This document shows, piece by piece, positions 8,255 through 39,520 of a DNA stretch of 48,210 nucleotides. Numbering within the stretch: the stretch's first letter is position 1; every line of letters begins with the position of its first letter. This stretch comes from Minisyncoccia bacterium. Its GTDB lineage: Bacteria > Patescibacteriota > Minisyncoccia > Phycocordibacterales > UBA9973. The position numbers and the translations under genes were made by a program. Under the pieces are notes generated by a model that saw only the letters and a program-made list of their open reading frames with translations, did not search any database and was not told where the DNA came from. Where the stretch lies: the NCBI GenBank assembly GCA_049287045.1, contig JBAQFC010000002.1, positions 1 to 48,210 of the forward strand, written 5' to 3'.

Positions 8255-8566
8255 TTGTATTTTGATTTAAGTTGTTTGCGTTATTGCTCTATAAAAACCA
8301 ACAAATGACGTCCAGAGAGCAATATACAAAACAACCAAACATACAAAAGAACTACTATTATATATGCACAATAGCATTATTATATTGAATTGTCAATTTG
8401 ATTACTCCTGAGTTCAATAAGTAAATGCGACACCTTTCGGTGTTTTAATTTTGTGTATCACGAGTTACTAAGTATAATTTTTCGCTATGCTCAAATTCTA
8501 CGTAAGTACTCGCGACCCCAGCTCGTGATTTCATCTGCTGATGAAATATCACTGCGCTTTCCACAA

Positions 8567-8594
8567 ACTAAAAATCTCCCTAAAGGGAGATTTT
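8567..8594 (-). terminator. terminator downstream of tRNA-Ala
   Basis: Minus strand reads AAAATCTCCC-TTTA-GGGAGATTTT followed by TAGTTT. Confidence 0.7.
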
Positions 8595-8605
8595 CTTAAC
8601 GTTTG

Positions 8606-8678
8606 TGGACCCTACAGGACTCGAACCTGCCACCCCCTCATTGCAAATGAGGTGCTCTACCAGATGAGCTAAGGGCCC
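8606..8678 (-). tRNA. tRNA-Ala(UGC)
   Basis: Minus strand: GGGCCCT TA GCTC ATCTGGTA GAGC A CCTCA TTTGCAA TGAGG GGGTG GCAGG TTCGAGT CCTGT AGGGTCC A. G3:U70 identity pair present. No encoded CCA; the trailer starts CA. Confidence 0.95.
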
Positions 8679-8808
8679 AAACTATTTATTTGTAAAAACC
8701 TATAACTTTCTGTGTTGCCTTTACGAGACGCTACAGATGAACTAAAGGCTTAAACTTTGCTAACATGCATATAATATATCATTTAACTAAAAATGCAAAT
8801 CTATTTAC

Positions 8809-8836
8809 TTGTTTTTTGCATGGTTTCTGATAATAT
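8809..8836 (+). promoter_or_regulatory. putative promoter of the intron-containing tRNA-Asn
   Basis: TTGTTT (8809-8814), 16-nt spacer, TAATAT (8831-8836), about 30 nt upstream of tRNA position 1. Confidence 0.4.
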
Positions 8837-8865
8837 ACTTATGTTCTTGTTTTAATTGAATACAT

Positions 8866-9258
8866 TCGGGAGTAGCTCAGCGGTAGAGCGGTCGCCTGTG
8901 GAAATTTCCTCCCTTTGGTATAATATAATTATTATGTCAGATAATAGGAAATATGCTGATAAAGCATCACGCAGCTTTCTATTGAAAAATAGATCGAAAA
9001 TGGGGTGAATTCGGGGAAACCCAAACTTGTAATGAGTGGGTAATCCCGAGCCAAGCTCTGATGAAAATCAGAGAAGGTGTAGAGACTATCTCGCAAGAGA
9101 GTAGTGTTCCAATTATTTTGGAATCCGAAGCGCCTCACTTCTAAGTTTTGCAACATTATTTTTTGTTTGCAAAATATGGAGATGATATAGTCCGTACCAT
9201 TAGTAATAATGGAGAAAACGTAAGCGATTGGTCGTAGGTTCGATCCCTACCTCCCGAG
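8866..9258 (+). tRNA. tRNA-Asn(GUU) interrupted by a group I intron (exons 8866..8899 and 9221..9258)
   Basis: 5' exon: TCGGGAG TA GCTC AGCGGTA GAGC G GTCGC CTGT. 3' exon: TAA GCGAT TGGTC GTAGG TTCGATC CCTAC CTCCCGA G. The joined anticodon loop is CTGTTAA. U1-A72 and G73 as in E. coli tRNA-Asn. Confidence 0.85.
8900..9220 (+). ncRNA. group I intron, subgroup IC3-like, no ORF
   Basis: Core blocks are nearly identical to the Azoarcus tRNA-Ile and Anabaena tRNA-Leu introns as I recall them: GGGGTGAATTCGGGGAAACCCAAAC, AATCCCGAGCCAAGC, GAAGGTGTAGAGACTA, GATATAGTCCG. The 5' exon ends in U and the intron ends in G. A candidate IGS, GCAG, pairs with exon CUGU and gives a U.G wobble at the splice site. 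Confidence 0.85.
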
Positions 9259-9273
9259 CATTTAAAATCTTTA

Positions 9274-9300
9274 GCACCCTTTTGGGTGCTTTTGATTTTT
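9274..9300 (+). terminator. terminator after tRNA-Asn
   Basis: GCACCC-TTTT-GGGTGC followed by TTTTGATTTTT. Confidence 0.75.
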
Positions 9301-9302
9301 AT

Positions 9303-9439
9303 GCTCAGGAGAGAGAGCCAACTGCTTGGCTCTCGGGTAGGGAGCGAAAAGCTTTTCTGTGTTTTTAAAAATCATAGATTTTAAAAAACTAGAAAAGGTA
9401 TACTGCGGCTGTAAGCCGAGATCACCCTACCTCCCGAGC
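9303..9439 (+). repeat. tRNA-3'-end-mirroring structured element, Asn-type, copy 1
   Basis: 5' arm GCTCAGGAG + hairpin (9312-9334) + GGGTAGGGAGCGA is the reverse complement of the tRNA-Asn 3' end (TCGATCCCTAC|CTCCCGAGC). The 3' arm CCCTACCTCCCGAGC (9425-9439) is a direct copy of that 3' end. About 80% identical to 11054..11189, with compensatory changes in hairpins. Confidence 0.8.
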
Positions 9440-9443
9440 CAGC

Positions 9444-9476
9444 AAAAATCACTTTAGAAATAAGGTGATTTTTTGT
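9444..9476 (+). terminator. terminator-like hairpin closing element copy 1
   Basis: AAAAATCAC-loop-GTGATTTTTTG. Confidence 0.55.
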
Positions 9477-9498
9477 TACCTAAGTGGAAGTTCGAACC

Positions 9499-9650
9499 TT
9501 GACGAGTTAACAAATCTTTGGTAAGGTAACGGCAGTAATCAGTTGTTTGAAAATATTGGTTTTAATGTTTATTTAGTGAATTACCTTGGTCTTCTATATG
9601 GAGATTGAAGTAGTTCATTAAATTACTAACAATTTTAAATCATTAAAAAA
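9499..9650 (+). promoter_or_regulatory. promoter plus conserved 5' leader of about 125 nt, module copy 1
   Basis: TTGACG (9499-9504), 17-nt spacer, TAAGGT (9522-9527). About 70% identical over about 150 nt to 12895..13050, including a conserved stem-loop with loop CTTCTATAYGGAGA. Confidence 0.65.
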
Positions 9651-10325
9651 ATGAAAACATTAGAATTTAAAATTCTTTCCGATGAGGTACTCTCGTTTGA
9701 AAATTTCATTGACGTCATGTTAAATCAGGCATCTTTTCCAAATACTCTAGGCGACCTCCACAAATGGATAAAGGGTGAATATTGCAAGAGTGGCAGGCAT
9801 TATCATAATTTTGAGCATATAGGAGATTGTCTTATAAATCTTTCTATGTTTAGAGATTCCGTTGATCATGGAATTTATGGGAATAGCCAAGCTATTTTTA
9901 CTGCTATATATTTCCACGATATTGTTTACTTTCCAGGAAGAAATAATAATGAAGAATTATCTGCTACTGTTGCCGAATCAGCCCTTATATCACTAGGATG
10001 CAAAAAGGATTTTATCGAGCTGGTAAAAAAACTTATTATGGCAACCAAGCATAATCAAGTTTTAGAAACAGACGAGGAAAAACTTATTGCCGACATTGAC
10101 CTTTTAGGATTCGCTCTGCCTTGGGAAAAATATTTGGAGATGACAACAAAAATTTATGAAGAGTTCGGTGCTCTATATACTAAGAGTGAATTTATAAATA
10201 GACGCAAGGGCTTCCTAAGGAAAAACTTCTTTTCGAAAGATAGGATTTACTACACACCTTATTTTTATGAAAACTGCGAAAAATCCGCAAGAGATAATTT
10301 CCAAAGATTTTTAGCTCTGGAATAA
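9651..10325 (+). CDS. HD-superfamily phosphohydrolase-like protein
   Basis: RHYHNFEHIGDCL ... FHDIVYFPG motif pair, typical of the COG4339-type HD family. Confidence 0.65.
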   Translation: MKTLEFKILSDEVLSFENFIDVMLNQASFPNTLGDLHKWIKGEYCKSGRHYHNFEHIGDCLINLSMFRDSVDHGIYGNSQAIFTAIYFHDIVYFPGRNNNEELSATVAESALISLGCKKDFIELVKKLIMATKHNQVLETDEEKLIADIDLLGFALPWEKYLEMTTKIYEEFGALYTKSEFINRRKGFLRKNFFSKDRIYYTPYFYENCEKSARDNFQRFLALE

Positions 10326-10350
10326 TACTGTTTTTGTAATAAAATTATAA

Positions 10351-10384
10351 GGCTGTTCACGTAAGTGTTCAGCCTTTTATTATT
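10351..10384 (+). terminator. terminator of the 9651..10325 gene
   Basis: GGCTGTTCAC-GTAA-GTGTTCAGCC followed by TTTTATTATTT. Confidence 0.7.
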
Positions 10385-10388
10385 TCTA

Positions 10389-10415
10389 TTCGAATGTCAT
10401 CCCAAGTTCGGAGCA
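10389..10415 (+). repeat. hairpin motif copy A (TTCGAATGTCATCCCAAGTTCGGAGCA)
   Basis: Member of a motif with 4 direct copies plus 1 inverted copy. Stem TTCGAA/GTTCGGA around a conserved loop, followed by a terminator-like hairpin ACCAT..ATGGTGTTTTT (10425-10448). Confidence 0.7.
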
Positions 10416-10453
10416 AAATTTATAACCATATTTATCAATGGTGTTTTTGCCTA

Positions 10454-10475
10454 CCAACTTGGGACGTTCGAACTT
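10454..10475 (-). repeat. hairpin motif, inverted copy
   Basis: Minus strand reads AAGTTCGAACGTCCCAAGTTGG. It forms an inverted pair with copy A across about 38 nt. Confidence 0.55.
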
Positions 10476-10502
10476 AGATTATTTTTATGTTATAACTTAT
10501 AC

Positions 10503-10952
10503 ATGGAAGGAATAAACAAAAAGTCAGAACTACACAACTCTCTTCAAAGAAAAGTAGAACTTGCGTCAAAATATAATAAGGGCGACGAGTTACCTGTAGA
10601 TTTTAAAAAAATAGAAGGTGCTGTGGGTATGTTTGATATCTTGTTAGAGGGTGAAAAAGTAGGTACTTTTGAAATAGCAGATACAAATCCTGAGGAAGAA
10701 AACTTGAGCGTAAAAACCAAACAGTTAGGTTTTATCAGGATTGATGATTTGTTTTTAAATAAAGGATTAGGTAAACAATTTTATATCGTTTTAAATAATT
10801 ATTTGAAAAATACAGAAGATTCTGTACTTGAGTCATCAGGAGAACATATTACTCCTCAAGCTAAGCGAGTGTGGGCTTCCTTGCTAAAGGATGGGTTGGT
10901 TTATAAAGAAGGAACTAGATCAAACGGCGAAGATTTTTATAGATTTAAATAA
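10503..10952 (+). CDS. hypothetical protein (149 aa), possibly acetyltransferase-like
   Basis: ATG at 10503 (MEGINKK...). The longer track ORF from 10365 would run through the terminator and repeat motifs. The segment FIRIDDLFLNKGLGKQFY is only weakly GNAT-like. Confidence 0.5.
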   Translation: MEGINKKSELHNSLQRKVELASKYNKGDELPVDFKKIEGAVGMFDILLEGEKVGTFEIADTNPEEENLSVKTKQLGFIRIDDLFLNKGLGKQFYIVLNNYLKNTEDSVLESSGEHITPQAKRVWASLLKDGLVYKEGTRSNGEDFYRFK

Positions 10953-10983
10953 TGTTTAAATCTGCTTTCTATCAATGATGACT

Positions 10984-11011
10984 CTCCGAACATCATCCCA
11001 AGTTCGGAGCA
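10984..11011 (+). repeat. hairpin motif copy B (CTCCGAACATCATCCCAAGTTCGGAGCA)
   Basis: 8-bp stem CTCCGAAC/GTTCGGAG with loop ATCATCCCAA. It occupies the position that the tRNA-Asn 3' end occupies next to copy 1. Confidence 0.7.
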
Positions 11012-11024
11012 TTAAAAAATCTTA

Positions 11025-11050
11025 GCACCCTTTTGGGTGCTTTTGATTTT
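11025..11050 (+). terminator. terminator hairpin identical to the one after tRNA-Asn
   Basis: GCACCC-TTTT-GGGTGC followed by TTTTGATTTTT. Confidence 0.7.
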
Positions 11051-11053
11051 TAT

Positions 11054-11189
11054 GCTCGGGAGACAAAGCAAACTTCTTTGCTTTGGTGTAGGGAGCGAAA
11101 AGCTTTTCTGTGTTTTTGGAAATCTTTGATTTACAAAAACGAGAAAAGGTATACTGTTCCTGTAAGGAAAGATACCCTACCTACCGAGC
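11054..11189 (+). repeat. tRNA-3'-end-mirroring structured element, Asn-type, copy 2 (no adjacent tRNA)
   Basis: GCTCGGGAG + hairpin CAAAGCAAA-CTTC-TTTGCTTTG + GTGTAGGGAGCGA ... GTATACTG TTCCT-GTA-AGGAA ... CCCTACCTACCGAGC (11175-11189). Confidence 0.8.
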
Positions 11190-11425
11190 CAGATGCGTCA
11201 AAATAAAATTTGACTAGTGTATGTACTATGATATGCTATAAGCATCACTATGAAAGAGACCCTTATGCAGATTCGTCTGCATCGGGGGCTTTTTCTTTTT
11301 AGGGCTTACTTGAGAACTTATGATAATGTTCGTTTAAGAAAGTTATTTCTATATTTTTATTTCTTAATAAAATTGAACATTTGTTTTTATCTGGAGCAAT
11401 AATGCAATGAATTGACTTGTTCCCT

Positions 11426-11446
11426 CATTGTCCCAAGTTCGGAGCA
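11426..11446 (+). repeat. hairpin motif copy C (3' half: CATTGTCCCAAGTTCGGAGCA)
   Basis: Shares CCCAAGTTCGGAGCATTA with copy B and TTACAAAGAC with copy D. Followed by hairpin ACATTGA-CAGG-TCAATGT (11455-11472). Confidence 0.55.
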
Positions 11447-11457
11447 TTACAAAGACA

Positions 11458-11486
11458 TTGACAGGTCAATGTATTGTTTGTAGTAT
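11458..11486 (+). promoter_or_regulatory. promoter of the 11533..12108 gene
   Basis: TTGACA (11458-11463), 17-nt spacer, TAGTAT (11481-11486). Confidence 0.55.
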
Positions 11487-11532
11487 GATGGTAAATTAAC
11501 GGAGTCCTTAAACAATACTAAATATAGAAAAA

Positions 11533-12108
11533 ATGAATATTGAAAAAGATATCTCAAATCAACTTAAAGAGAGATCAGATTTATTTTCTGATTTTTTAAA
11601 TTTAAAAGTACTACATATTCCCTCTACCGAAGAACCTCTCTCTTATTATTTTATTTTACTTGGAATTGATTTAAAGGAGAAGCAATCTTTTTTAAAAAAT
11701 ATAAGTTTTATGGAACTTATGAAAGATGTTTTAGATAAGCGTGATAATACTCGTGAAATTGAACTTGAATATCAAGGAACAATAGAGCATCTTGATGATC
11801 ACAAACCATGGTGTTTTCTTGAACAAGTTCTTCTTAATCCATACAAAGAAGATGAAAGCTATGACACAAGGAGCTACTATGCTTATAAGGATTATAAAAA
11901 GAATGTTTTTTATGATTGGTATCATGACGTAGGTTGGAAAGGAAGAACAGATATTGTCCAAGTAAATGACGCATCTTTTACTCCCAAAAAATCTTTGAAA
12001 ACATTTTTGGAAGTTAATGGTTTTTCAAAAGACATAATTCCAAAAGTGCATATTGTAAGATGTGTGCGTCATCCTGTTGGAGAGAAAATATATTATGTTG
12101 GCTCATGA
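11533..12108 (+). CDS. hypothetical protein (191 aa)
   Basis: Clean ORF with promoter and terminator. No family recognised. Confidence 0.55.
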   Translation: MNIEKDISNQLKERSDLFSDFLNLKVLHIPSTEEPLSYYFILLGIDLKEKQSFLKNISFMELMKDVLDKRDNTREIELEYQGTIEHLDDHKPWCFLEQVLLNPYKEDESYDTRSYYAYKDYKKNVFYDWYHDVGWKGRTDIVQVNDASFTPKKSLKTFLEVNGFSKDIIPKVHIVRCVRHPVGEKIYYVGS

Positions 12109-12122
12109 TAGTACACCAATTT

Positions 12123-12150
12123 AATCCCTTGAAATTCAAGGGATTTTTTA
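12123..12150 (+). terminator. terminator of the 11533..12108 gene
   Basis: AATCCCTTG-AAAT-TCAAGGGATT followed by TTTTA. Confidence 0.75.
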
Positions 12151-12154
12151 TTGC

Positions 12155-12193
12155 AATAAAAAACACCACCCGATAAATATATAAAGGGTGGTG
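12155..12193 (-). terminator. terminator of the 12220..12819 gene
   Basis: Minus strand: CACCACCC-loop-GGGTGGTG followed by TTTTTT. Confidence 0.7.
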
Positions 12194-12219
12194 CATGACA
12201 GTTTGTTGTCGTAAGTATG

Positions 12220-12819
12220 CTATTCTTCTTTTGGTTTGAATCCAAGGTCTTTTAAGAGAGGGAATTTTTTTATCATTCTAATAATTTCTATCGCTCTTTT
12301 TGGAAATTTTAAGCTCTTAAGATGTTTTTCTGTACAATTTAAGCAATCCCCGACAGTTTTAAACCCATTTTTCTTTAAAATTTCTACGTAATCTTTAAGA
12401 AACGAGTTAACTTCTATCGGCTCTGTAAGTTCTTTTTGTAATTGTTCCGACTTGAATTTTTTCTCATTAAATTCTATTTCCTTCATTAAATTCTCGATTT
12501 TTTCAACCCCATAGAGTTTCTTAGCATCTTCTATGAGCTTTTGGTATATTTCATTACCAAACTTTCTGCTGAAATATCCGTAGAAAGTTTCCTTATCATA
12601 ATGATGACAATAATCATGAATATGACAAGTATGAGATGACCCAACATAAGCGATACTTCCAACATTTCTTCTTTCCTCAAAGAAAATTGACCCATCCTCA
12701 AGTAGAGAAATCTTTATAGAATCACTACTCATATAGTCGTATCTTGATCCCTTTTTGGAATTTTCTTCCCATGGGACAATGACAGTAGATAAGACACTTA
12801 AAATCTTTTTTGTTTTCAT
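12220..12819 (-). CDS. hypothetical protein with C-terminal helix-hairpin-helix-like segment
   Basis: ATG at 12819 (MKTKKILS...). The C-terminal segment GFKTVGDCLNCTEKHLKSLKFPKRAIEIIRMIKK resembles an RpoA-CTD/HhH fold. His/Cys cluster HTCHIHDYCHHY. Confidence 0.5.
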   Translation of the reverse strand: MKTKKILSVLSTVIVPWEENSKKGSRYDYMSSDSIKISLLEDGSIFFEERRNVGSIAYVGSSHTCHIHDYCHHYDKETFYGYFSRKFGNEIYQKLIEDAKKLYGVEKIENLMKEIEFNEKKFKSEQLQKELTEPIEVNSFLKDYVEILKKNGFKTVGDCLNCTEKHLKSLKFPKRAIEIIRMIKKFPLLKDLGFKPKEE

Positions 12820-12894
12820 GTGTTTTAGTTTTAAATGAACCAAATCGGCTCGGTTAGTATTAGGAATTTCTGATTGAACATTACCACTTAATCA

Positions 12895-13050
12895 TTGACG
12901 AGTCAACAAATCTTTGGTAATGTAGTGGCAAGATTTAGTTATTTGAAATACAGATTTTGTTGTTATTGATTTAGTTGCTTTGAGCTTCTATACGGAGACT
13001 AAAGTGACTAAATCAATAAATTAATTTCACAATTTAAAACCACAACGAAA
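12895..13050 (+). promoter_or_regulatory. promoter plus conserved 5' leader, module copy 2
   Basis: TTGACG (12895-12900), 17-nt spacer, TAATGT (12918-12923). Stem TTGATTTAGT/ACTAAATCAA encloses CTTCTATACGGAGA. Homologous to 9499..9650. Confidence 0.65.
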
Positions 13051-13527
13051 ATGAAAAAATATCATTTCAAACATCACTTCCGTGATGAAGAAACTGCTGG
13101 GGCATTTAGATCTTTTGCAAAGCAGCTCCTAAAAATAAGAAAGCAAATACAACACTATCGAAAGGACAAATTAAAGAGAAAAGAGATCTTTAATTTAGCT
13201 TGCTCTCATAAAGAATTAGGAAATTTATTTGAGAGAAAACTCAACGATGATTCTATAAATATAGCAAAAGAGTTGAGTCCTGTTTTTACATCAGAGTTTA
13301 ATGGTGTAATTGTTAAGGTTGTTAAATCATCAACATTAAAATCGATTGAAAGGCAATACATAAGAATTGTAAACGAAAGAACATTCCTTGATAAGGATAG
13401 TCAGGAACCTACCAAATTTAACAAAAAAGAAAATAACACGAGACCGTTGAAAGACGTATTAATTTTCCCAGTTAGAACTATGGAAGATATTCTTAAAAAG
13501 AAAAAAAGAAGATACCCAAAAAGATAG
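13051..13527 (+). CDS. hypothetical basic protein (158 aa)
   Basis: Clean ORF behind the module-2 leader. Lys/Arg-rich, no family recognised. Confidence 0.55.
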   Translation: MKKYHFKHHFRDEETAGAFRSFAKQLLKIRKQIQHYRKDKLKRKEIFNLACSHKELGNLFERKLNDDSINIAKELSPVFTSEFNGVIVKVVKSSTLKSIERQYIRIVNERTFLDKDSQEPTKFNKKENNTRPLKDVLIFPVRTMEDILKKKKRRYPKR

Positions 13528-13548
13528 AAGTCTTAATTAAAAGTTAAA

Positions 13549-13582
13549 AACCTAATTTACTGAAAAGTGATTAGGTTTTTTT
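13549..13582 (+). terminator. terminator of the 13051..13527 gene
   Basis: AACCTAAT-loop-ATTAGGTT followed by TTTTTTATTT. Confidence 0.7.
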
Positions 13583-13603
13583 ATTTCCCATCCAAAATAC
13601 TCA

Positions 13604-13629
13604 TTCGAACATCATCCCAAGTTCGGAGA
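13604..13629 (+). repeat. hairpin motif copy D (TTCGAACATCATCCCAAGTTCGGAGA)
   Basis: Same stem and loop as copy B. Followed by TTACAAAG and the terminator hairpin at 13643-13666. Confidence 0.7.
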
Positions 13630-13642
13630 AAATTTACAAAGA

Positions 13643-13666
13643 CTCGTACGAAAGTACGGGTTTTTG
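13643..13666 (+). terminator. terminator hairpin after motif D
   Basis: CTCGTAC-GAAA-GTACGGG followed by TTTTTG. Confidence 0.6.
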
Positions 13667-13685
13667 TATTGTCTTTTTGTACAAA

Positions 13686-13712
13686 CAAAAAACACCCCGA
13701 AAGGTGTTTTTT
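13686..13712. terminator. bidirectional terminator hairpin
   Basis: AAAAAACACC-CCGAA-AGGTGTTTTTT. Confidence 0.55.
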
Positions 13713-13800
13713 GCGGCACTTATGTTATTTAACGAATAGTATGAGTTTTACCTCACACCCACACAAACAGTATAGCATACTCCAATAAAAAAAGCAAGCG

Positions 13801-13830: not shown

Positions 13831-13837
13831 TGTGTCT

Positions 13838-14212
13838 AATGTCTTGCATCTGTAAGCCGAATTCTGTATTCCAGCCGAAGCTGAAACGATAGTCATTTGT
13901 CTAGGCCTGACATTACTATCAGGCTCAAGCGATTCTCCCCGACCGAAGCCAGAGCACGATCTTGCATAGAGGTAAGGATTTAGCCGTTTCATATTCTATA
14001 TTACTATAGAACTCATCCTATGATTACTCATAGGATGATCTTTCCCTTTCGAGAAAAATCGTCTCTGTTCGCACCTATATATTGCTATATGCGGGCGTTA
14101 CCCGCTACCATTCCCTTCCCGAAGGATTCGCTATGTTCGGACTTTCCTCCCTTCAGCTTCGCTCAGGGCAAGCCCCTAACAAAACCAAAGAGTAACTACC
14201 CAACGCAGGACA
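13838..14212 (-). ncRNA. rnpB: RNase P RNA, bacterial type A
   Basis: Minus strand contains GGGAGGAAAGTCCGAAC (P4 5' strand), GGTAACGCC, and ACAGAATTCGGCTTAC (P4 3' strand). P1 pairing is GTCCTGCGTTGG with CAGATGCAAGAC. End coordinates are good to within about 5 nt. Confidence 0.9.
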
Positions 14213-39253: not shown

Positions 39254-39264
39254 ATTAAAAATAA

Positions 39265-39520
39265 TTGATGGGGCTTTCCTTACAGGAACAGTATACAATC
39301 GTGCGGCTGATGGGCTTGGTCACAAATATTTCCTCGCCGTCGCTCAGAAATTTCGCGACCCCATAAAAATAAAACTGCTTTGATTTTTATCTGATACGAA
39401 GTAATTGTCTGTATTTTGCTTGCAAAATAGACAATAGGGGCGAACTTGTCTACTGACAAAACATCGTTCCGTCCGTCAGCACCCAACGAAATGTCTCACA
39501 GACATTTCTTCAACCGCGCA
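39265..39520 (-). repeat. tRNA-3'-end-mirroring structured element, Asp-type
   Basis: Minus strand: GCGCGGTTG + hairpin (AAGAAATGTCT-GTG-AGACATTTCGTT) + GGGTGCTGAC. This is the reverse complement of the tRNA-Asp 3' end GTCAGCACCCAT|CAGCCGCGC. A direct copy GCCCATCAGCCGCAC lies at 39315-39301. GTATACTG TTCCT-GTA-AGGAA (39298-39276) is identical to Asn-type copy 2. Confidence 0.75.

Follow-up and report, generated by a model that had tools for sequence, protein, structure and literature searches.

Few mobile elements can be recognised in the tiny genomes of Patescibacteria, and the way in which they gain and shuffle genes is poorly understood. The locus studied here, in a Minisyncoccia bacterium, carries two copies of a short non-coding unit whose arms mirror the end of tRNA-Asn. 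One copy lies directly behind the tRNA gene, whereas the other has no tRNA beside it. How did this second copy come to stand apart from the gene that it mirrors? The window, i.e. the whole stretch of DNA that was analysed (48,210 nucleotides), is contig C2 of a source genome of 854 kb, with 34% GC and 97.5% completeness. We conclude that a genuine orphan occupies 11012-11192, and that it belongs to a family of small insertion units with specificity for tRNA 3' ends. It lacks an adjoining tRNA because it is located inside a row of gene cassettes behind tRNA-Asn.

Two copies of one unit behind tRNA-Asn

The tRNA gene and the copy adjacent to it are the following:

8866..9258, + strand: tRNA-Asn(GUU), with exon 1 at 8866-8899, intron at 8900-9220 and exon 2 at 9221-9258.
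9260..9442, + strand: copy 1, made of the terminator palindrome P0 (9260-9302), the folded element (9303-9439) and CAG; 144.2 bits with covariance model R1.

A group I intron of 321 nt (8900-9220) is present in the anticodon loop of tRNA-Asn (Rfam RF00028 at 8910-9213, 68.6 bits). ARAGORN misses the gene because this intron splits it. Intron-less relatives align exactly from 9221 onward. The last ~18 nt of the tRNA and C9259 are the sequence mirrored by both copies of the element. About a dozen genomes of the same genus also have a group I intron in tRNA-Asn, and the gene is without intron in G024, G063 and G048.

The original prediction described a second Asn-type element, preceded by a hairpin motif instead of a tRNA. 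This second copy is real: BLAST of 9256-9445 against the whole genome identified 11007-11192 as a repeat of 9256-9442 (85% identity, 187 nt, E 3.9e-55), at a spacing of 1751 nt from copy 1 to copy 2. A repeat search paired 9256-9422 with 11007-11173 (84% identity) and, as family D8, the 3' arms 9424-9442 and 11174-11192 (95% identity). The terminator of copy 2 is indeed the one found after tRNA-Asn, as the two copies have in common an unbroken run of 34 nt, AGCACCCTTTTGGGTGCTTTTGATTTTTATGCTC, which takes in the terminator stem-loop, the T-run and the start of the 5' arm. Terminator-like sites were called at 9273-9290 for copy 1 and at 11024-11041 for copy 2, in the latter case on the minus strand too. 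The architectures also agree, both copies sharing the same multi-branch fold (z -4.5 to -5.3) with compensatory changes in each hairpin. Neither ARAGORN nor Rfam detected a tRNA to the left of copy 2, as had been claimed. Copy 2 is 1754 nt downstream of the nearest tRNA-Asn end, and on its left it adjoins a boundary motif at 10975-11011. It departs in this from the position typical of its family, directly 3' of the mirrored tRNA gene.

Anatomy of the unit

The unit comprises the terminator palindrome P0, which is optional in the family, and a folded core of ~137 nt. Its parts are arranged in the order P0, acceptor part of the 5' arm, P2, T part of the 5' arm, P4, GGTATACTG, P5 and 3' arm. In copy 2 they are located as follows:

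11012..11053, + strand: P0, made of an A-rich trailer, the stem-loop GCACCC-TTTT-GGGTGC (11025-11040) and a T-rich inverted trailer.
11054..11062, + strand: acceptor part of the 5' arm, GCTCGGGAG, a perfect complement of the acceptor 3' strand of tRNA-Asn.
11064..11085, + strand: hairpin P2, CAAAGCAAA-CTTC-TTTGCTTTG, from the fold; 6/6 modelled pairs covary.
11086..11099, + strand: T part of the 5' arm, GTGTAGGGAGCGAA, reverse complement of the T-loop and T-stem 3' strand TTCGATCCCTAC at 11/12 bases.
11103..11148, + strand: hairpin P4, with a conserved CUUUUC/GAAAAG base and a variable tip.
11157..11169, + strand: hairpin P5, TTCCT-GTA-AGGAA, with a conserved GTA loop and the conserved GTATACTG before it.
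11174..11192, + strand: 3' arm, ACCCTACCTaCCGAGC and CAG, a direct copy of tRNA-Asn ~57-74 with one mismatch; end of the repeat.

P0 of copy 2 reads as a putative bidirectional terminator, being terminator-like on both strands. The trailer of P0 and its inverted partner covary between loci. The statement that the arms of copy 2 still match tRNA-Asn holds for each of their segments, with 9/9 bases in the acceptor part, 11/12 in the T part and 15/16 in the 3' arm. Together with the preceding AT, the acceptor part GCTCGGGAG is the reverse complement of the tRNA-Asn 3' end CTCCCGAGCAT (11/11 with the flank), and its counterpart in copy 1, GCTCAGGAG, has one mismatch to tRNA-Asn. Hairpin P2 divides the 5' arm exactly between its T-stem and acceptor parts, and the arm segment GTAGGGAGCGA is found at 11088-11098. 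Within the 3' arm, CCCTACCTACCGAGC (11175-11189) is one base off tRNA-Asn. The 5' arm copies the 3' strand of the tRNA in inverse form, as is seen in the tmRNA unit, where A faces U70 and TGGT faces the encoded ACCA. It extends into the complement of the gene trailer in the Asn, Trp and Arg units.

Two other origins of the arms were considered and rejected. A degenerate tRNA gene, with the 5' arm as a copy of the tRNA 5' acceptor strand, disagrees with the A opposite U70 and the ACCA complement of the tmRNA unit, and with the T-loop and trailer complements. A retro-copy of mature tRNA would concern Asn 3' arms, which end in GCCA, but not the other copies, and no reverse transcriptase was found in the genome.

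Two further observations concern the core. In copy 2, TTGATT and TATACT, separated by an 18-nt spacer (11126-11155), form a weak outward-facing promoter-like site that does not exceed chance. TATACT falls in the conserved GGTATACTG junction of the family, and cores of the ACCTG type do not have the site. Some units contain an extra block of ~13 nt, (A)TGTGTACTCACGG, between P5 and the 3' arm (L099 5030-5166, L091 6559-6693, L116 1-127, L033 and L047), and this block partly repeats the GGTGTACTG junction.

A family of units at tRNA 3' ends

Covariance model R1, built from five copies, detects 13 units in the genome. With the exception of copy 2 and of a unit truncated by a contig end, each of them directly follows a tRNA or tmRNA gene, at its 3' side and in the same orientation. 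Copy 2 reaches 140 bits with the model (E 5e-32), where the weakest accepted members have 25-50 bits. Units are present in 22/40 relatives across the order, with 1 to 11 per genome, and their distribution is patchy within the genus (12/24 genomes). The conserved core of ~120 nt recurs at about 15 different tRNAs across the order. Contigs with the same element are assigned to Candidatus Nomurabacteria, Paceibacteria and Patescibacteria. In an alignment of 44 distinct sequences, 94.9% of the cells are paired and double changes occur in 23/24 pairs. The score for covariation, 0.616, compares with 0.17 in shuffled controls and about 0.1 in slid ones.

Rfam 15 gave no match at gathering score, and for 9200-11480 only chance-level hits (E 0.8-5). 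A known ribozyme or RNA family was rejected as an identity for the unit given this result and the junction strands of 9, 8 and 6 nt, which by eye misfit a hammerhead core. We found no published description of the element in the literature, and the unit is apparently a small insertion element that has not been described so far.

A second core type (…CGGAAC…, CAGGG…CCTGAC, 160-220 nt) has the same arm design. It was seen in the Asp unit of the window (39259-39520), in the tmRNA unit (C11:2090-2227) and in the Trp unit of G066 (L133). The family thus has at least two core subfamilies.

Could the unit be a structured RNA gene rather than mobile DNA? Such a gene would be transcribed from the tRNA strand and would mimic the acceptor/T-arm, as a decoy or as a processing/termination module, with copy 2 as a second expressed gene. 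Strong covariation and the conservation of the GTA loop, GGTATACTG and CGAAAAG fit this idea. The 3' arm is continuous, like the acceptor/T stack of a tRNA, and on the + strand there is a slight excess of G-T over A-C among isolated mismatches (25:12 and 6:3 in two counts; a third count of 28:2 is biased by a search pattern that fixes one arm). However, wobble pairs are very scarce, with 19 one-sided cells versus 258 two-sided changes, and Rfam holds no match. The units are patchy even within the genus and their insertions are clean-edged. They immediately follow a terminator and are not separated from it by any promoter-like site; shuffled sequence yields promoter-like hits at least as often as the region does. 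Moreover, the 5' arm pairs through discriminator, CCA and trailer, which would be needless for a tRNA mimic. We therefore consider an RNA gene unlikely. These data favour a DNA-level element with a folding single strand, while the slight + strand bias leaves an RNA role open.

Units are insertions that carry their terminator

Comparison of empty and occupied sites shows that units have been inserted, that a direct repeat of tRNA ~57-74 flanks them and that P0 comes along with them. In G018 the site is empty, with tRNA-Pro, 27 nt and tRNA-Gly; in G013 a unit occupies the same gap and is flanked by an 18-bp direct repeat, GACTCCCAGCAGCCCGAC. Similarly, tRNA-Trp is followed by AGTTGACAAAAT in the empty site of G043, and an insert of 184 nt including P0 precedes the same flank in G066. 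The proposal that element and terminator move as one unit is supported, because P0 is found inside the clean insert of G066.

A decaying unit may be seen in L045 (G021), where tRNA-Pro and tRNA-Gly are separated by a 26-nt spacer, AGGGATGAATAAGGTTGGGGAGGAAA. With a 5' arm and the start of a core, this spacer resembles what a deletion would leave of a Pro-type unit, and suggests that units may decay in place.

In both empty/occupied pairs a displaced 3' tRNA fragment marks the end of the insert and the tRNA gene is regenerated, as in genomic islands that integrate at tRNA genes. One could thus suppose that copy 2 is the scar of a classical island of this kind, an attR tRNA fragment with leftover attP from which the integrase element has been deleted. 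A displaced 3' tRNA fragment at the island end is a hallmark of tDNA islands (PMC4383910), and the start of the repeat in the T-loop corresponds to a known integrase sublocation. Random deletions, however, would not leave the same ~120-nt core at about 15 tRNAs, and there is no integrase nearby. This explanation is very improbable.

The two copies are probably not a fresh duplication

The simplest origin of the pair would be a plain local duplication: the 187-nt unit would have been copied once by slippage or unequal homologous recombination, the ORFs would be separate arrivals, and the copies would have drifted later. The identical terminator block of 34 nt agrees with it, all the more since G024, of the same genus, has a different, compensated terminator stem. 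Against it, the cores of the two copies share just 82.5% identity, and for each of them a closer relative exists in another population. For the core of copy 2, identity reaches 89.7% with a tRNA-adjacent unit of the foreign contig L113 and 89.0% with L174, and the core of copy 1 finds its best match in L115 (86.9%). By these comparisons, each copy is closer to a unit elsewhere than to the other. The differences between the two copies are moreover whole-hairpin swaps. P5 differs at 8/13 bases; that of copy 1 belongs to a block of 29 nt identical to the Tyr unit and to the unit of G076, whereas that of copy 2 is identical to P5 of the Trp and Asp units. Finally, the left edge of the repeat is exactly on the GAGCA of the motif, and the layout recurs in many unrelated contigs. 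A plain local duplication is accordingly quite unlikely.

The pair is better read as a mosaic, since the terminator block is identical though the cores are only 82.5% alike: it would not be a fresh local duplication, yet some exchange would have occurred between the copies. The shared 29-nt P5 block suggests that cores may move between tRNAs within the genome.

A cassette array anchored at tRNA-Asn

Two ORFs separate the copies, as stated in the original prediction, and they belong to an array that continues beyond copy 2. Its features are:

9651..10325, + strand: ORF1, 224 aa, HD-type phosphohydrolase (phrog_19425, E 2.4e-28), with no Pfam or NCBIfam match.
10379..10415, + strand: boundary motif m1 (…TTCGAATGTCATCCCAAGTTCGGAGCA), from repeat families D2 and I16 and a genome-wide pattern scan; its inverted partner is at 10446-10464.
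10503..10952, + strand: ORF2, 149 aa, an orphan from the ORF list with no family match.
10975..11011, + strand: boundary motif m2, 37 nt, with a hairpin CTCCGAAC/GTTCGGAG at 10984-11009.
11410..11446, + strand: boundary motif m3, from repeat families and the pattern scan.
13593..13630, + strand: boundary motif m4, the last of the array, just ahead of the RNase P RNA gene.

Over 9443-13630, units made of a promoter and an orphan ORF each end in a motif of ~35 nt, …TTCGAACATCCTCCCAAGTTCGGAGCA, and the ORFs of the array are mostly orphans. The sequence TCCCAAGTTCGGAGCA occurs 4 times in the genome, always on the + strand, and nowhere but in the island bounded by tRNA-Asn and RNase P RNA. It is present in 16/60 genomes of the same genus, usually near tRNA-Asn. 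G048 has three motif copies, and G063 has 11 behind tRNA-Asn (L083, G063:C24:11000-19500), each after 1-2 ORFs on the same strand. From this recurrent placement, the hairpin motif is the boundary signal of a cassette array anchored at tRNA-Asn. Motif m2 ends in GAGCA, like tRNA-Asn, and it is within this GAGCA that the repeat of copy 2 starts; overall, the likeness between the boundary motif and the tRNA-Asn end is loose (10/16 bases). No recombinase was found in 8255-13720 or in the array of G063, and no ORF of the island has a Pfam match.

Two neighbouring features deserve mention. The 165 nt at 11237-11402, with a promoter-like site, a strong hairpin and a T-run, are 80-86% identical in at least six genomes of the same genus (G053, G049, G071, G057, G020 and G058) and include what appears to be the 3' end of a minus-strand gene, cut off here by motif m3. 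The RNase P RNA (13837-14204, minus strand) reaches only 102.9 bits, with the gathering score at 100, and seems to be a divergent class A RNA that contains large insertions.

Orphan units and accretion

Asn-type units were collected from metagenome and genome contigs with a 20-nt pattern. About 33 are adjacent to a tRNA and about 24 of roughly 57 are orphans; of the orphans, 7 come after the motif, 9 after a second motif ending in GGAGC and about 8 after other DNA ending in GAGC. The succession of motif, P0 and Asn-type element seen at copy 2 is found in G076, and at least 19 other contigs have this layout of motif, terminator and element. Several contigs contain two Asn-type units, 0.65-2.4 kb apart (two-copy contigs include L128, L099, L116 and L086), and the intervening DNA is unrelated to ORF1 or ORF2. 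Unrelated content between the copies, with no sign of boundaries, would have spoken against accretion; this is not what is observed, because the content between the copies in L128, L099 and L116 ends in a boundary motif.

The original prediction explained copy 2 by tandem accretion at one attachment site. The first half of this proposal stands, tandem or nearby copies of the same type and orphan copies being common, but the attachment point is the junction between GAGC and A and not the arms. Accretion at a shared attachment point is supported by the motif as array boundary, the GAGCA junction, the recurring layout and the distinct lineages of the copies.

Alternatively, copy 2 may have been inserted directly beside the motif, whose end (…TTCGGAGCAT) resembles that of tRNA-Asn, as an off-target event without any displacement by cassettes. 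The motif and tRNA-Asn have GAGCAT in common, the 5' arm with its flank offers the complementary ATGCTC, and orphans always have GAGC at their left. Arms copied from the target should nevertheless match the motif, but they match tRNA-Asn. Otherwise, off-target insertion and displacement predict identical layouts. We regard direct insertion as rather unlikely.

A possible mechanism

We favour, as on balance probable, the explanation that copy 2 is a displaced Asn-type unit in a cassette array joined at GAGC. ORF cassettes and Asn-type units would be joined at junctions directly after GAGC by site-specific recombination. Because units and cassettes would both join there, an Asn-type unit could sit anywhere in the array. 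The Asn-type unit now known as copy 2 would once have been at tRNA-Asn and would now be two cassettes away from it (ORF1 and ORF2, 9443-11011), while another Asn-type unit, copy 1, would have come to occupy the tRNA-Asn end. More tentatively, the active form might be a folded single DNA strand, in which the paired arms rebuild a duplex copy of the end of the tRNA gene. A host tyrosine recombinase could then join this folded duplex to the real tRNA end, as with CTXphi attP or integron attC. Loss of both units would leave a joint of tRNA…GAGC with CAGATGCG. Neither an excision product nor an empty Asn site or a strain-level indel came to light. Metagenome contigs scanned for the exact junctions gave no match, and no strain-level relative was found, the nearest contigs being only 80-90% identical.

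Displacement alone does not explain every feature. An identical block of 34 nt next to cores with 82.5% identity requires either gene conversion or a requirement for identity in P0. Conservative site-specific recombination fails to account for arms that match about 15 different tRNAs. A more speculative idea, to which we give little credence at present, is that the unit carries its own address: its internal antisense copy of a tRNA end would pair with target DNA and steer insertion without a dedicated protein. A swap of arms would then retarget the ~90-nt core to any tRNA or tmRNA gene, and the array would reflect an integron-like capture by housekeeping recombinases.

As to candidate enzymes, the genome encodes two tyrosine recombinases of Xer size, PF00589 being found only on C11 (63258-63770 region) and C9 (1951-2472 region). 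No serine recombinase (PF00239) was found in the genome.

Relation to known mobile elements

In integrative mobile elements exploiting Xer recombination (IMEX) of the CTXphi type, a folded single-stranded attP is used by the host XerC/XerD, and the integrated layout consists of a target-like site, cargo, an inverted site, ~90 nt and a direct site (PMC3442271, PMC4246890). The parts of our unit follow the same order and, in silico, its arms can fold into a target duplex. Two inverted sites are likewise present: the arms are 75-95 nt apart and both strands are predicted to fold with them paired (z about -4.5 to -5.4). The unit has no recombinase of its own in a host with two Xer-sized ones, and tandem accretion at a regenerated site is typical of both. 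However, all mapped targets of the units are tRNA or tmRNA 3' ends instead of the dif site of XerC/XerD. Unlike those of CTXphi, the arms vary from copy to copy, matching each local tRNA. The unit is also only 120-190 nt long, without replication genes.

Genomic islands at tRNA and tmRNA genes, as defined by Islander, are those of tyrosine integrases (PMC4383910). Our unit resembles them in leaving the tRNA intact, with the displaced 3' part, from T-loop to end, at the far edge, and arrays accumulate at one tRNA in both cases. It differs in that neither the unit nor the island has an integrase, in that the unit also contains the tRNA end as an inverted copy along with a folded, conserved core, and in being 100 to 1000 times smaller.

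Integrons carry gene cassettes with attC sites (PMC4792948). The array resembles them in that units of a promoter and an ORF, in a single orientation, end in a conserved, partly palindromic site, and in that the sites vary in sequence but keep their structure. The putative joining of a folded single strand to a double-stranded primary site would be a further likeness. In contrast with integrons, neither an IntI gene nor attI adjoins the array, and its anchor is the end of the tRNA-Asn gene. Neither the boundary motif nor the element has the R/L box pattern of attC, and the cassettes have their own promoters.

What is new here is the array context, the common GAGC junction, the empty-site comparisons and the recurring orphans. 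The locus joins, through GAGC, a miniature unit that rebuilds a tRNA end and a tRNA-anchored array of single-gene cassettes without integrase. If host recombinases acting on folded DNA drive both, this would be a gene-capture system distinct from integrons, and also a natural case of target recognition by copied sequence. At a practical level, orphan copies resemble tRNA gene fragments and can thus mislead the annotation of tRNAs and genomic islands.

Palindromic repeats of small genomes include REP/RAYT systems, Rickettsia palindromic elements and MITEs. Our units share with them a short, multi-copy, non-coding and hairpin-rich nature, with near-perfect Watson-Crick stems and a patchy occurrence among relatives, and Y1 (IS200-like) transposase genes are present in the genome. 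Unlike these repeats, the units are strictly specific for tRNA 3' ends and their arms are copied from the neighbouring gene. The co-occurrence with Y1 (HUH) genes that marks REP/RAYT or IS200/IS605 systems is not seen for them. A Y1/HUH transposase was therefore rejected as their mobiliser: G029, G035 and G025 have 10, 5 and 2 units, respectively, without Y1, and G003 has 11 Y1 genes and no unit. The source genome has four Y1 genes (PF01797; C11:10152-10469, C1:89939-90160, C10:58124-58351 and C1:131324-131569) and relatives have up to 11. Y1 may serve the other hairpin repeat families of the genome.
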